Below, one piece after another: positions 4,838 through 10,360 of a stretch of DNA of 64,000 bases. The DNA comes from Candidatus Poribacteria bacterium (GTDB lineage Bacteria > Poribacteria > WGA-4E > WGA-3G). The notes below the pieces were generated by a model. That model had not been told where the DNA came from. It ran no database searches and saw only the letters and a list, made by a program, of their open reading frames with translations. The stretch is taken from contig OZ251518.1 of assembly GCA_965242965.1 (NCBI GenBank), forward strand, positions 1,856,001 to 1,920,000, in the 5' to 3' direction. How positions within the stretch are numbered: the stretch's first letter is position 1; each line of letters starts with the position of its first letter. The translations under genes were made by a program, and so were the position numbers.

Positions 4838-5410
4838 ATGCTAAAAATTCAGATAACCCTATTGGCTATTTTAATCGGCGGTCTTGCCTTTGTATCCTGC
4901 GACCGCGTCCAGCAGATGTCGCAACCAGTTTTACCGGATGAGGATGCGATGGATCCCGGTGTGCAAGAGACTCTTGTCGTTATTAACGAACTAATGGCCT
5001 CCAACTCCGATAGTTTCGCCGACCCGCAAGGGGAATATGACGACTGGCTTGAGTTGCACAACCTCACCGATGAGGCAGTGCTGCTCACGGGGATGTACCT
5101 CACGGACAAAGAGGACGATCTCAGGAAATGGGAATTTCCCGAAAATACTGAGATTCCACCAAATGGGTACTTGATTGTGTGGTTAGATGAAGATGAAAAT
5201 GCGCCCACAGGGTTGCATGCCAACTTCAAACTGGCCCGCGGTGGCGAAACCGTCATGCTCGTGGATACTGATGCGCGCAGCAATCAGGTCCTAGATGCAA
5301 TCACTTTTGGCGAACAGGAGAAAGACACTTCCTTCGGACGCTGGCCGAATGGGACAGGCACTTTCCAAGTGGTTCAAATGACCCCCGGGGCACAAAACAT
5401 GTCTAATTAA
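4838..5410 (+). CDS. Lamin tail domain (LTD) lipoprotein
   Basis: LAFVSC lipobox; VVINELMASN...DWLELHN...GMYLTD...NFKL...SFGRWPNG; AGGAG RBS. Confidence 0.8.
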   Translation: MLKIQITLLAILIGGLAFVSCDRVQQMSQPVLPDEDAMDPGVQETLVVINELMASNSDSFADPQGEYDDWLELHNLTDEAVLLTGMYLTDKEDDLRKWEFPENTEIPPNGYLIVWLDEDENAPTGLHANFKLARGGETVMLVDTDARSNQVLDAITFGEQEKDTSFGRWPNGTGTFQVVQMTPGAQNMSN

Positions 5411-5652
5411 ACGATTAACCGCAACGACGACGAAATCAACCAGAGGCATTTCGGTTCGGTTTTGATGTCACCACAGAAAATTGACAACGTGTCCGCCTCC
5501 TGTCCGTGGAGATTCGGTTGAACTTGCCCTGTTTGCGACAGGCGAGCGCAAACGACAGATATGGGCCAACTGAATGCCTATGGGTTAATTTCACAGCGCG
5601 CCGTTTTTGTGGTATCGTTAAGTCTGAATTCCGCAGAAATTGTCACTTTAAT

Positions 5653-5681
5653 TTGACACCGTGCATTTTTCGTGGTATAAT
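5653..5681 (+). promoter_or_regulatory. sigma-70 promoter driving a long structured leader and the LRR gene
   Basis: TTGACA-17 nt-TATAAT with TG extension. Confidence 0.85.
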
Positions 5682-5694
5682 TAACTGCAACGAT

Positions 5695-6029
5695 TAAAGT
5701 TTGGACAATTTACGCAAACGCGCGGCGGGGTGAACAATTGCAGCCGATCTGCACACGGTTCCATCCCCGCATAAGAAAGGATGCCGTTTTCTCGCGAGTC
5801 ACCGTTCAACGACTCAAAAATGGAGGTAGTCAACTTGCAGTGTCGGAAACCATCGAGACTCGGTACTGCAACTCCATAGAATTTCTTCGTGATGATAGCC
5901 GCTTTTTTAGGGCATCCTTATGCTCCAAGTTGGTTTCTTTGCCAACTACCAAGGAAACCAAGTCGCAGAATATTTCCACTGCTGCTTGATAAAGCGGCAA
6001 GAAACTTGATGCAAATTGTCCAAAGTTTA
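5695..6029 (+). ncRNA. Candidate large structured RNA (leader or sRNA)
   Basis: 12-bp perfect closing stem 5700-5711/6013-6024 plus at least six internal helices found by eye; begins just after the promoter. Confidence 0.6.
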
Positions 6030-6059
6030 GCAATTTCAAACTAAAGGTGTATAAATCTC

Positions 6060-8087
6060 ATGAAATTCTCACAGATACCGAATCAACGCGGACTTGGGCT
6101 CTCAAGGCAGAACTGGAGACTTATCCATGTCGTCACCCTGATTCTCACCGCATGCGTCCTATTTTTCGCACCACACCGGATAGCAACCGCACAGACTGTC
6201 CATATTCCAGACCCGGCCCTCCGCAAGACTCTTGAGATGGCATTGGGTAAAGAGGCTGGGAGCGACATCACCCAGGCGGAGATGGCGAGTTTAACATCCC
6301 TTCAAGCCGGATGCCGCTTTTTGAAGTTGTCGGAAACGGGACTATGGGCGCGAGAACGGTGGATATGCCAATCTACCAATGATGCTTTTGAATCAGGCAT
6401 TCAAGATTTAACAGGCCTTGAGTTCGCTACCAATCTGATAGAGCTGCAGCTTGGCCTCAATCGGATATCGGATGTATCCGCGCTCAAGGATTTAACGAAC
6501 CTGACACATCTCGCTCTTGGCCGCAATCAGATATCGGATGTGTCACCGCTTGAAGAACTGACAAACTTGACACACCTCTCTCTCAGAGGCAATGGGATGT
6601 CGGACGTATCCCCACTCAGCACTTTGACAAATCTGATAGAACTGGATCTTCACGGCAATCAGATATCGGATGTGTCACCGCTTGAAGAACTGACAAACTT
6701 GACACACCTCTCTCTCAGAGAAAACGAAATCTCGGATGTGTCAGCACTCAAAGATATGACAAAATTGATAATGTTAGATCTTCAACTCAACGGGATATCG
6801 GATGTCTCCCCACTCAAAAATTTGACAAATCTGAGATACCTGGATATTGATAGCAATCAGATATCGGATGTGTCACCGCTCGACACTTTGACAGATCTGA
6901 GATACTTGGATATTTCCGACAACCAGATATCGGATGTGTCAGCACTCAAAGATATGACAAAATTGGCGGCAGTGCTGGATCTTGACGACAACCAGATATC
7001 GGATGTGTCAGCACTCAAAGATATGACAAATCTGAGGAGGCTAGACCTTGACGACAACCAGATATTAGACGTGTCACCGCTCAAAGATTTGACGAACCTG
7101 ACATGGCTAGATCTTGACGACAACCGGATATCAGATTTGTCACCGCTCGAAGATATGACAAACCTGACATACCTAGATCTTGATGGCAACCAGATATCGA
7201 ATCTATCCCCTCTCAGTTCCTTGATAAACCTGACAGAATTGGATCTTGATGGCAACAAGGTATCAGATCTGACACCACTGAGTGTTTTGACAAACCTGTC
7301 AGAGTTAGATCTTCACGAGAACCGGATATCGGATGTGTCACCACTTAGCACCTTGATAAATCTGTCAGTGCTCAAGCTTCACGAGAACCGGATATCGGAT
7401 TTCTCCCCGATTGCCGGATTGATACCTAATCTGGTAGAATACGATGACAGCAGCCAAACGTTTCCGCCTACCGAGGCGGAGGATGTCAACGGCGATAGCA
7501 TAGTGGACATCTTGGATCTGACGCTAGTCGCCTCGCGCTTGGGCCAGACAGGAACTACTGCCGCGGATGTGAATGGGGATGGGAGAGTCAACATTCAGGA
7601 TCTCGTCCTGGTTGCGGGTGCTTTAGGAACTGCGGCAGGCGCGCCTTCCGGAACTTATCGCGATTGGAAGGTTAGTCTTACAAAAGCAGATGTTCAGCAG
7701 TGGCTCAGCCAAGCCCAACAACTAGAGGCGACAAACCCCGCGTACCAGCGGGGCATTGCTGTGCTGGAACAACTTCTCGCAGCTTTGACACCCAAACAAA
7801 CGGTACTGCTGCCAAACTACCCCAATCCGTGCAATCCGGAGACATGGATACCGTATCAATTGGCACAATCCGCGGATGTCACGCTCACCATCTACGCGGC
7901 AAACGGGACAGTAGTGCGGACCTTGGCTGTGGGCAATAAGCCTGCCGGCCTCTATGAGAACCACAGCCGCGCAGTGTATTGGAATGGCAGAAATGAGGCG
8001 GGGGAACCTGTTGCCAGCGGCGTTTACTTCTATACCCTCACCGCCGATAACTTCACGGCTACCCGTAAAATGCTCATCCGAAAGTAA
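6060..8087 (+). CDS. Secreted internalin-like LRR protein with dockerin-like repeats and a C-terminal FlgD-Ig/T9SS-CTD-like domain
   Basis: IPDPALR cap; ~15 22-aa LRRs (NQISDVSPLxxLTNLxxLDL); DVNGD repeats; LLPNYPNPCNPETWIPYQL...SGVYFY...TRKMLIRK. Confidence 0.9.
   Translation: MKFSQIPNQRGLGLSRQNWRLIHVVTLILTACVLFFAPHRIATAQTVHIPDPALRKTLEMALGKEAGSDITQAEMASLTSLQAGCRFLKLSETGLWARERWICQSTNDAFESGIQDLTGLEFATNLIELQLGLNRISDVSALKDLTNLTHLALGRNQISDVSPLEELTNLTHLSLRGNGMSDVSPLSTLTNLIELDLHGNQISDVSPLEELTNLTHLSLRENEISDVSALKDMTKLIMLDLQLNGISDVSPLKNLTNLRYLDIDSNQISDVSPLDTLTDLRYLDISDNQISDVSALKDMTKLAAVLDLDDNQISDVSALKDMTNLRRLDLDDNQILDVSPLKDLTNLTWLDLDDNRISDLSPLEDMTNLTYLDLDGNQISNLSPLSSLINLTELDLDGNKVSDLTPLSVLTNLSELDLHENRISDVSPLSTLINLSVLKLHENRISDFSPIAGLIPNLVEYDDSSQTFPPTEAEDVNGDSIVDILDLTLVASRLGQTGTTAADVNGDGRVNIQDLVLVAGALGTAAGAPSGTYRDWKVSLTKADVQQWLSQAQQLEATNPAYQRGIAVLEQLLAALTPKQTVLLPNYPNPCNPETWIPYQLAQSADVTLTIYAANGTVVRTLAVGNKPAGLYENHSRAVYWNGRNEAGEPVASGVYFYTLTADNFTATRKMLIRK
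6460..7410 (+). repeat. 66-bp tandem LRR-coding repeats
   Basis: Recurrent cagatatcggatgtgtca; copies starting near 6523 and 6655 are identical over ~65 bp. Confidence 0.9.
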
Positions 8088-8290: not shown

Positions 8291-10360
8291 ATGAAAAACG
8301 AATCGCGCCCGGTAGCACACACCTACAAACAGAAGAAGTTCTCACGTCCAGTGACGCGCCGTGACTTCCTCTCAACAGGGCTCAAGGTGGGAGCAGCTGC
8401 CTTTACGACAGGGCTGTTACCCCGCCTTAAGGGAGAGGCAGCCAGCCAATACAACGTGTTGTTCATCTTCGCCGATGACCTGCGTCCCTTGCTCGGATGC
8501 TATGGGCACCCAGAAATGCACACGCCGAACATTGATGCATTAGCCCAGCGCGGTACGCTATTTAACCGCGCCTATTGTCAATTTCCGGTGTGTAATCCCT
8601 CGCGAGCCTCTATCCTTACCGGGCTGCGGCCCGAGACAACCCGCGTGCTTGATAATTTTGCGGATTTTCGGCAGACTGTGCCGAGTGCTGTCACCCTACC
8701 CCAGCATTTCAAATCCCACGGATACCACACACGTTCCGTCGGTAAAATCGACCACGGGCTTCGCGCTTTAAAGGATGAAGCCTCCTGGAGCACCCCAATT
8801 TGGTGGCCAAGATGGAGACCTTATGAAGGCACCCCTTCTTGGCAAACTCTTGACGTTGCTGATGATGAACTCAGCGATGGAGAAACTGCAAAGCGAGCCG
8901 TAGAAGTCTTGGAGGAGATTCAGGATTCGACCTTTTTTCTTGCGGTAGGTTTTTACAAACCGCATATGCCCTTCAATGCTCCAACCCGATATTACGAATT
9001 GTATGATATAGAAACCTTTAAAGATGCCCCGTATGTAGCTCCCCCTGCTGGGCATGAAATACGGGTGTATTCAGATATTCCCGCCGGAAATACGCCGCTT
9101 TCTGAAGAGAAAACGTTAGAATTAATTCGGGCTTATGCTGCCTCAACAAGTTACGTGGACGCGCAAGTCGGACGGGTCCTCGCTCAACTGGACACGCTCG
9201 GGCTCACTGAAAAGACAGTCATCGCTTTCTGCGGTGACCACGGTTTTCATCTTGGGGAGCACGGTACATGGGGTAAGAGAACCGTCTTTGAGGTCGCGCT
9301 CCATTCACCATTGATACTGAGCATCCCTGGACACGCGCAGCCTGGCACCAAAACCAATGCTCTCGTTGAACTCGTTGACATCTACCCAACTTTGTGCGAC
9401 GCTTGCCAACTGCCTATTCCATCAGAACTTGAAGGAATAAGTATGATGCCGGTAATTGAGTCACCCACACGCCCATGGAAAACTGCCGCTTTTAGCCGAA
9501 TCGGGAAAGCAAATGGAAAACGCTCCATGCGCACCGAGCAGTACCGGTACACTGAGTGGGGCATCAATGCCGCGCTTGGTAAAGAACTATACGATTATCA
9601 AGCAGACCCGGGGGAAACTGTCAACATCGCGCATCATCCTGAAAACACGAACCTTGTCGCACGCCTCAGCGAACAACTCCGTGCTGGCTGGAAAGGTGCC
9701 CTCCCTGATAATCAGGAACAAGTCCCGGGGACACAAACCCTTCCGTGGGATGTAAACAATGATGGTGTCGTTGATATCCGAGATCTTATCCTCGTCGCCA
9801 ACAGTTTTGGGGAAGAAACACTTGCGTATCCCAAAGTAGACGCAAATCAAGATGGCACTGTTGACATCTTTGACCTGCTCATCGTTGCATCGCATTTCGG
9901 TGAGACCGGGAATTCCGCCTCCCCGCCGCAGGCAACGAAACTCCTGCCGCAACATGTCGACAGCGTCACAGAATGGCTCGCCGAGGCACGTACCGTTGAT
10001 GATGGCTCTACACTTCTCCGAAAGGGCATCGCTACCTTGGAGCATCTGCTATACACCACAGTGCCTACCGTGACATCTCTTTTGCCGAACTACCCCAACC
10101 CGTGCAATCCGGAGACATGGATACCTTACGATTTGGCGGAAGGTGCCGAAGTCTCTATCTATATCTATACCCAACGCGGTGAGACTGTGCGACGATTATC
10201 CCTCGGTTTTCAAACGGCAGGCGTTTATCGGAGTCGCGAGCGGGCAGCGTACTGGGATGGGCGCAATGCTACCGGTGAACCTATCTCAAGCGGTGTCTAT
10301 TTTTATTCCCTACACGCCGGCGGTGTTAAAGCAACGCGTCAGTTGGTAATTGTAAAATAG
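8291..10360 (+). CDS. Tat-exported Cys-type sulfatase (iduronate-2-sulfatase-like) with dockerin and C-terminal Ig/CTD-like domain
   Basis: TRRDFL twin-arginine; DDLRP; CNPSRAS formylglycine motif; GDHGFHLGEHG; DVNNDG repeats; NYPNPCNPETW. Confidence 0.9.
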   Translation: MKNESRPVAHTYKQKKFSRPVTRRDFLSTGLKVGAAAFTTGLLPRLKGEAASQYNVLFIFADDLRPLLGCYGHPEMHTPNIDALAQRGTLFNRAYCQFPVCNPSRASILTGLRPETTRVLDNFADFRQTVPSAVTLPQHFKSHGYHTRSVGKIDHGLRALKDEASWSTPIWWPRWRPYEGTPSWQTLDVADDELSDGETAKRAVEVLEEIQDSTFFLAVGFYKPHMPFNAPTRYYELYDIETFKDAPYVAPPAGHEIRVYSDIPAGNTPLSEEKTLELIRAYAASTSYVDAQVGRVLAQLDTLGLTEKTVIAFCGDHGFHLGEHGTWGKRTVFEVALHSPLILSIPGHAQPGTKTNALVELVDIYPTLCDACQLPIPSELEGISMMPVIESPTRPWKTAAFSRIGKANGKRSMRTEQYRYTEWGINAALGKELYDYQADPGETVNIAHHPENTNLVARLSEQLRAGWKGALPDNQEQVPGTQTLPWDVNNDGVVDIRDLILVANSFGEETLAYPKVDANQDGTVDIFDLLIVASHFGETGNSASPPQATKLLPQHVDSVTEWLAEARTVDDGSTLLRKGIATLEHLLYTTVPTVTSLLPNYPNPCNPETWIPYDLAEGAEVSIYIYTQRGETVRRLSLGFQTAGVYRSRERAAYWDGRNATGEPISSGVYFYSLHAGGVKATRQLVIVK

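Follow-up and report, generated by a model that had tools for sequence, protein, structure and literature searches.

A modular family of putative structured leader RNAs, found upstream of an LRR gene and of many anti-phage defence genes in a poribacterial genus

Results and discussion

The promoter and the leader of the LRR gene

In the window (the whole 64-kb stretch of DNA that was analysed, which forms part of a 5.7-Mb genome, G000, by whose coordinates the related copies are named), a gene of 675 aa (6060-8087, + strand, ATG at 6060) encodes a product with LRR repeats, a dockerin and a FlgD-Ig/Por_Secre_tail-like end, and is preceded by a region that was read letter by letter (5400-6300) and folded as RNA on both strands (5690-6035). 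The promoter scan placed a sigma-70 promoter (TTGACA-17-(TG)TATAAT, 12/12 with the upstream TG) at 5653-5681 on the + strand, a perfect match that makes the expected start of transcription near 5688 reasonable, and a degenerate copy of this promoter repeat (TTCACA-17-TATCGT, 9/12, + strand) at 5590-5618. The resemblance of 5648-5684 to 5585-5621 marks the latter as a second, degenerate promoter unit, which precedes the main promoter by 55 nt. A Shine-Dalgarno-like AAGGUG, seen by eye at 6044-6049, lies in an A/U-rich and unpaired stretch of the fold, and no terminator-like site was found within 5400-6300.

The earlier note had proposed, by eye, that a large multi-stem RNA is encoded between this promoter and the LRR gene, and that the plus strand is the favoured one. 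Folding bore out both claims, the minimum free energy (MFE) of 5690-6035 being -119.6 kcal/mol on the + strand (shuffle mean -88.1, sd 5.4, z -5.87, 0/100 shuffles equal) as compared to a weaker fold of -110.8 (z -3.91) on the - strand, and all the pairings then listed are present, nearly all of them within the + strand MFE. The outermost is a closing stem (5700-5711 with 6013-6024, extended by 5695-98/6026-29), whose 5' arm (5696-5711) and 3' arm (6013-6028) were recovered by reading, by folding and as a duplex (-18.1 kcal/mol, 0/1000 shuffles equal); since the 5' arm begins 15 nt past the -10 box, it would make up the extreme 5' terminus of the RNA. Within it follow a divergent form of what we term module A (5725-5770: GCGGGG/CCCCGC, 5725-30 with 5765-70, around UGAAC, a UGCAG/CUGCA hairpin at 5739-43/5749-53, and GGUUC), a long-range stem that joins 5777-5785 to 5911-5919, a stem at 5796-5815, an AUGGAG/CUCCAU stem (5820-25/5872-77) around a further helix (5835-41/5865-71), and two hairpins, namely UUGGUUUCUUUG/CAAGGAAACCAA (5930-5961, pairing 5930-41 with 5950-61) and UGCUGCUU/AAGCGGCA (5980-5999). 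The + strand MFE holds the closing stem, GCGGGG/CCCCGC with its inner hairpin, the AAGGAUGCC/GGCAUCCUU stem, AUGGAG/CUCCAU, and the UUGGUUUCUUUG and UGCUGCUU hairpins. The pseudoknot that had been suspected between GUAGU (5826-30) and ACUAC (5945-49) gained no support from comparison: copy 442570 of G000, the only paralogue that keeps the hairpin needed for it, has GCAGU in the bulge and no ACUGC in the loop. On the 3' side of the LRR gene (window 8291-10360 and the next two ORFs) lie three paralogous ORFs with a twin-arginine-like N-terminal motif (RRDFL..GAAAFTTGLLPRL).

A modular family

An initial search of G000 yielded weak partial matches only, to copies 65-77% identical; iterative nhmmer searches converged on 22 matches at E≤1e-3, and a model of the core (R1) recovered 15 strong copies (E≤4.6e-15) and a weak one. 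The family is modular and reads in register as promoter, module A, variable hairpins and core. Its promoter is near-consensus (mostly TTGCAA-17-TGGTATCCT, T-rich in its upstream portion), module A is a 5' hairpin of the form GGUUCG-UGAA-hairpin-CAC-UCGGACC, and the variable hairpins that follow often include a GACGCG/CGCGUC hairpin. The core is near-invariant (AACUC-AAAGR-CGGAG-[GCAGUCAAC]-UUGCAG-(variable tip)-CUGCAA-CUCCG-N-GAGUU-UAUUCGU), with TTGCAG and CTGCAA set 11 to 28 nt apart.

The window copy is a divergent member, matched by R1 at 5773-5893 (+ strand, 83.5 bits, E 1.4e-18). Its outer core helix (P_a, 5811-15/5881-85) is weakened; P_b (5820-25/5872-77), the conserved bulge GUAGUCAAC (5826-34) and P_c (5835-41/5865-71, with a variable tip and followed by UUUCUUCGU) are in place. 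Its module A is altered and goes unscored by R2, the model built on the canonical form of this module. Two stems are particular to the window copy, that of 5777-85/5911-19, which occupies the place of the GACGCG/CGCGUC hairpin of the family, and that of 5796-5815, and the hairpin at 5930-5961 (module C) is common to the window and paralogue 442570 only. The tail of the window copy (UUGAUAAAGC..GAA.UUGAUGCA) is also found in copy 1069233. Furthermore, tandem pairs of complete leaders (promoter, module A and core) stand ahead of one gene in G000 (G000:C1 4564676-4565430) and in a second genome of the same genus, G108 (G108:C1 3056479-3056843 and 3454297-3454642), the first leader of each pair being without a gene of its own. 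An antisense fragment (1846465) and a tandem extra module A (4395663) were left out of the count of gene-linked loci.

Pairing constraint, strand and alternative helices

In an alignment of module A (A2: 29 sequences from four genome sources, with L074 and L076 omitted as duplicates of L072 and L064), 91.7% of cells are paired, as compared to 28-57% when the partners are slid, and double changes occur at 6/12 pairs (20 cells); 0/500 shuffles reached four of the five measures. The core (alignment A1, 21 sequences) is paired in 92% of cells (32-47% when slid), and its double changes are weak (5/22 pairs, a count reached by 58/500 shuffles), its stems barely varying. As these stems are almost invariant and their covariation is weak, the core is possibly conserved for its sequence and not for its fold. 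G.U cells outnumber A.C cells in the core (39:19) and in module A (67:5), a bias to be expected solely when it is the gene strand that folds. No reading frame is conserved through the leader, the best being open in 11/21 copies only, and a leader peptide or small protein gene was rejected on this ground. Taken together, the compensatory changes, the excess of G.U over A.C and the missing frame point to an RNA read from the gene strand. Homologues of the element, which the earlier note had described from the window copy, thus exist and carry compensatory changes in module A, core and closing stem.

An action at the DNA level was also weighed, in which the conserved blocks would be transcription-factor operators (e.g. 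GTTC..GAAC of module A) and the RNA folds incidental. It would suit the invariance of GTTCGTG and TCGG in 29/29 module A copies and the location of these blocks just downstream of the start site. Nevertheless, it leaves the compensatory changes in the outer stems and the strong strand bias of G.U over A.C unaccounted for, the half-sites are merely 6 bp apart from centre to centre, and the variable spacing between TTGCAG and CTGCAA is ill suited to an operator; we therefore regard it as highly improbable.

The core can form two mutually exclusive helices, UUGCAG:CUGCAA and GCAGU:ACUGC. RNAalifold prefers the second (as GGCAGU:ACUGC); the variable hairpin stacks on the first, which argues for that helix, and the 5' strand UUGCAG varies solely by changes that keep G.U pairs. 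In 14/21 copies the two competing helices lie ≤2.5 kcal/mol apart. Such near-equal predicted energies are suggestive of a switch and no proof of one, and they may follow from the repetition of GCAG.

Known RNAs and distribution

In line with the earlier observation that no tmRNA, RNase P, SRP or common riboswitch signature is recognisable, no Rfam 15 family matched the whole 64-kb window at gathering scores; at E≤10, positions 5500-6200 gave two sub-threshold chance matches on the other strand, and at E≤1, twelve loci with other copies gave two unrelated matches only. The Poribacteria-1 RNA motif, which the earlier note had brought up as a candidate, reportedly comes from the same phylum (Weinberg et al. 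2017) and is presumably included in Rfam. No Rfam 15 model of any name matched the 13 scanned copies at E≤1, which speaks against this identity as far as the Rfam models go. The word Poribacteria-1 is absent from the main text of PMC5737381, and in the literature searched on Poribacteria RNAs and on structured RNAs upstream of defence genes we found no description like this family.

The distribution of the family was assessed with strict filters and on samples of groups. Under these settings, the exact core pattern was found in one other species-representative genome, a Candidatus Poribacteria MAG with 6 loci, and R1 matched 2/151 genomes sampled across the phylum and 3/41 sampled in the family, all three belonging to the window's genus (16, 11 and 9 matches); five other genera (38 genomes) gave no R1 match. 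Module A reaches slightly further, R2 having matched twice in G061, a genome from a neighbouring genus, with single weak matches in G069 (E 0.0017) and G025 (E 0.005). A core candidate in G061, noticed by eye as a GUAGUCAAC..GCAAC stretch, was rejected, as it scored 5.2 bits and R1 gave nothing there at E≤10. A pattern scan of metagenomes retrieved two stretches, both judged to be chance on reading, and phage and plasmid collections gave no blastn match. On these comparisons of sequence, we consider the leaders to be an undescribed, genus-restricted family of structured RNAs, which would add a new RNA family to an uncultivated phylum of sponge symbionts.

Genes behind the leader

Poribacteria are known for large repertoires of defence and eukaryote-like proteins. 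All core copies (15/15) are co-oriented with a gene start and none is inverted; a same-strand ORF begins within ~130 nt after 14 of the 15, and a second leader follows the remaining one. Between core and AUG lie ~20 to >200 nt, with Shine-Dalgarno sequences that by eye are free. According to Pfam, the downstream genes are mutually unrelated. Among the first downstream genes in G000, 15/18 had a PADLOC match at E≤1e-5 and 10/18 at E≤1e-30 (as compared to 2 and 0, respectively, for 10 long ORFs drawn at random from G000), counts of genes and copies that are less than independent, since the family includes orthologues, paralogues and tandem duplicates. The first genes matched by PADLOC in G000 are those of PbeA (with PbeC behind it), SspD, two different TmtA, Dsr1, two MTase_I, GmrSD/Orf5, HKD+Snf2, an NsnB-like ATPase, two FRG-TPR proteins (PDC-S15) and a Sel1-trypsin protein, with weaker matches for a HATPase_c_3 protein and a tubulin-like protein. 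In G108, the leader stands ahead of DrmMII, HerA, a ParB_N protein and orthologues of G000 genes (the FRG genes being recognised by eye), and module A alone ahead of a CARF-HEPN Csx1; in G061, the genes behind module A are one like DruF and one for a non-defence lipoprotein.

The specific link to the LRR protein that had been drawn from the window is not sustained by the family, which precedes ~20 unrelated genes, mostly of anti-phage defence, and to which the LRR gene is the exception. As the LRR-dockerin protein itself has no PADLOC match, its link with the leader seems incidental. TPR, Sel1 and LRR genes nonetheless recur behind the leader, a hint that both gene sets are possibly under joint control.

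Comparison of these loci makes it evident that a unit of promoter and leader has been propagated ahead of many genes, probably acquired ones. The situation is akin to that of reused or 'mobile' promoters (PMC3575422), in which similar promoter-bearing upstream regions precede non-homologous genes of one genome, and here, too, a homologous promoter-bearing region was found ahead of non-homologous genes. The present unit differs from those promoters in that it includes a 100-330 nt RNA under pairing constraint and is associated with a single functional class of genes. If it were a plain propagated promoter-leader cassette, it would still be a clear natural case of the reuse of a promoter together with its UTR. 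A position directly upstream of a defence gene and a structured nature are also traits of type III toxin-antitoxin RNAs, of the AbiF-associated RNA (PMC12373285) and of retron/DRT RNAs. Each of these belongs with one protein family, unlike the leader, which is common to >15 unrelated systems. Moreover, the leader is without a reverse transcriptase and, by eye, its sequences hold no tandem short repeats of the type III toxin-antitoxin kind.

The closing stem and the question of mobility

The closing stem defines a subfamily that comprises the window copy, copies 1069233 and 442570, and the orthologues of 1069233 from two further genomes. Scored by duplex folding, it is found in 5/5 members (15-21 bp, -18 to -26 kcal/mol, 0/1000 shuffles equal), and the changes in its arms between copies either yield G.U pairs on the gene strand or, in one case, are double, so that pairing is kept. 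In copy 1069233 the duplex is far stronger on the + strand (-21.2) than on the - strand (-8.2). In the three paralogous loci (window, 1069233 and 442570) the 5' arm starts 13-15 nt past the -10 box, and the 3' arm ends ~30 nt before the AUG, leaving the ribosome site free. Most copies of the family lack this stem.

The same arms admit another view, already foreseen by the earlier note, namely a MITE with the closing stem as its paired termini. Inverted termini are present in 5/5 subfamily members, and several tests speak against a plain MITE. In the broader form of this view, which we take as the main rival, the element would be a Correia-like miniature mobile element or a 'mobile promoter' devoid of a dedicated regulatory role, its inverted repeats would be transposition termini, it would carry or abut a promoter, and it would accumulate by defence genes since defence islands are hotspots of insertion and recombination. 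In line with this view, the homology between the window, 1069233 and 442570 copies has its limits exactly at the inverted repeats AAAGTTTGG..CCAAACTTT, and a TA lies outside them in several copies (1069233 having CG on its 3' side). At 154866 and 4564906 the 5' arm is upstream of the nearest promoter(s), as is a 5' arm remnant at 4565088, and the 154866 arm lies 9 nt past a tRNA gene and encloses promoters. Moreover, the orthologous LRR locus of G061 is syntenic (flanking gene 80% and LRR gene 69-73% identity), and its spacer (~430 nt) is dissimilar to window 5410-6057 and contains small hairpin repeats of other kinds; the promoter-leader was hence either gained at the window locus or lost in G061. 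Both the arms upstream of promoters (two copies) and the element-free locus of G061 fit a mobile DNA element, the genome is rich in short dispersed repeats and repeated promoter units, and such elements and promoter reuse are on record (PMC2649163 and PMC3575422).

Against the same view, 15/15 core copies aim at a gene start, copies are just 65-77% alike, most members of the family have no inverted termini, and the changes in the arms yield G.U pairs solely on the gene strand. The terminus motif has 8 sites at ≤1 mismatch, 7 of which fall in four leader copies, and 164 sites at ≤3 mismatches (~140 expected by chance), numbers that leave no room for a large MITE family with these ends. The flanking TA itself extends the palindrome, so that no target duplication can be demonstrated, and the structured interior and the strand bias would stay unexplained. 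Orthologous copies in three genomes of the genus diverge alongside their genes, with modules gained or lost, and for this reason the unit looks more like a resident 5' UTR than like a recently jumping element. When set beside the Correia repeat-enclosed elements of Neisseria (PMC2649163) and bacterial MITEs (PMC10969869), the family shares the inverted termini, a long co-transcribed RNA stem open to processing by RNase III, the association with promoters and the intergenic location upstream of genes; it differs in being 2-3x longer, with a conserved structured interior, in being always directed at a gene, and in having few and divergent copies, most without termini and none with a demonstrable target duplication. 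We thus hold the mobile-element account, which is compatible with a leader and does not exclude one, to be possible though rather unlikely as the whole explanation.

A further reading of the closing stem is that the domain is cut from the mRNA at this stem (in an RNase III-like manner) and persists as a stable non-coding RNA, the mRNA keeping a short leader. A duplex of 15-21 bp that spans from the 5' end to ~30 nt before the AUG in all five subfamily members would lend itself to such a cut, and the gene-less first leaders of the tandem pairs would find a use. The cleavage, however, is deduced purely from the length of the duplex, and the stem is missing in most copies, which renders this reading decidedly unlikely.

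Possible function of the leader

From the promoters and the ORFs we infer that the leader is a 5' UTR, and by them we place its predicted start and extent. The explanation that we favour, and consider fairly probable, is that window 5696-6028 is the 5' leader of the LRR-gene mRNA and belongs, as a divergent member, to a modular and lineage-restricted family of leader RNAs that would serve control by a common factor. The copies of this family are each placed directly after a near-consensus sigma-70 promoter, on the gene strand, and stop some tens of nucleotides short of a start codon. The RNA would fold during its synthesis into a closed domain at the 5' terminus, formed by module A in most copies and, in the subfamily of the window, by the 15-21 bp stem that reaches from the 5' end to ~30 nt before the AUG; this domain may shield the 5' end and insulate the mRNA from its context. 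The core, with its 9-nt bulge and two exclusive helices, would provide a site of docking or switching for one common factor, acting in trans, which we would guess to be a protein and not a metabolite. The factor may set read-through or mRNA life in place of ribosome access, a preference that stems from the ribosome sites being free and at very different distances from the core and, for a control in trans, from no terminator or ribosome-site trap having been found. No consistent expression platform was recognised among the copies, the ribosome sites being by eye unsequestered and the hairpins after the core being followed by a U-run in some copies only. Antitermination of the RfaH/LoaP type (by a NusG paralogue) was considered and is unlikely, given that a specialised paralogue was sought in G000 and only one NGN-domain gene was found. 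The outcome of such a mechanism would be one post-transcriptional input common to much of the immune gene set.

By their structure, conservation, gene strand and position between promoter and start codon, the leaders are comparable to riboswitches and to ribosomal-protein, ANTAR and T-box leaders, and with protein- or ligand-responsive leaders at large they share compensatory changes and alternative pairings. They depart from these in matching no known family, in having no recognisable expression platform, in preceding unrelated defence genes instead of one pathway and in the conservation of the core stems as sequence. These points bear on whether the leader is itself a riboswitch or a self-cleaving ribozyme, with the conserved bulge and internal loops as a predicted ligand pocket or active site. 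Invariant unpaired nucleotides (GCAGUCAAC in the core, UGAA and CAC in module A), stem tips of varying length, the putative 5' UTR location and the two competing helices would all accord with it. Since no riboswitch or ribozyme model of Rfam 15 matched, no terminator or ribosome-site trap is common to the copies, the genes have no metabolite theme and stems conserved in sequence are unusual for aptamers, we regard it as quite unlikely.

The coordination of the many, often toxic, defence systems of bacteria is largely an open question, and the known controls are mostly transcription factors specific to a system. A bolder extension of the favoured explanation, which we put forward tentatively and consider doubtful at present, is that the leader is a sensor RNA common to >20 unrelated anti-phage systems, whose bistable core would respond to one signal derived from infection or stress. 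It would cover restriction-modification, GmrSD, the Pbe/Ssp phosphorothioate systems, Tiamat, Dsr1, HerA, Csx1 and a Druantia protein and, if true, would amount to an RNA-based 'immune regulon', a mode of regulation that is not on record for bacterial defence systems. One leader common to unrelated systems would be a simple and testable handle on the co-regulation of an immune arsenal, and would reveal how newly acquired defence genes plug into the expression machinery of the host.

Further observations on repeats and neighbouring loci

The window promoter (5640-5694) belongs to a dispersed family of promoter repeats with a unit of ~55 nt. Directly upstream of a tRNA gene (L002 1200-1800, - strand, equal to G000:C1 ~3550270-3550870), 7-8 units of ~60 nt are arrayed head to tail, each of them with a full consensus promoter (AATTTGACA-17-TGGTATAAT). 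Dense dispersed hairpin repeats of 30-150 nt (e.g. units with GACCAGGAGGTCTC and CCCCGCAAAGCGGGG) occupy the flanks of most leader loci in G000 and a locus of G061 (L117 2060-2330), and some are inserted within leaders, as in copy 442570 between the 5' arm and module A. In the HKD+Snf2 leader (G000:C1:154840-155260), the tRNA gene that precedes the 5' arm is the second of two adjacent ones, and a place directly after tRNA genes is a typical insertion point of islands. Behind one leader (L045, G000:C1 2447270-2454570) we observed SspD, a 294-aa protein, a 329-aa ORF and a patatin-like protein that begins with a GGGxKG motif, all but SspD being read by eye. Lastly, ~10 kb before the start of the window (G000:C1:1846389-1846465), a run of ~20 nt (GAUGGAGGCAGUCAACUUGC), the same in sequence as the 5' half of the core, is found in antisense orientation within an ORF of 424 aa, glycosyltransferase-like by eye, the mRNA of which would be complementary to the cores of the leaders.
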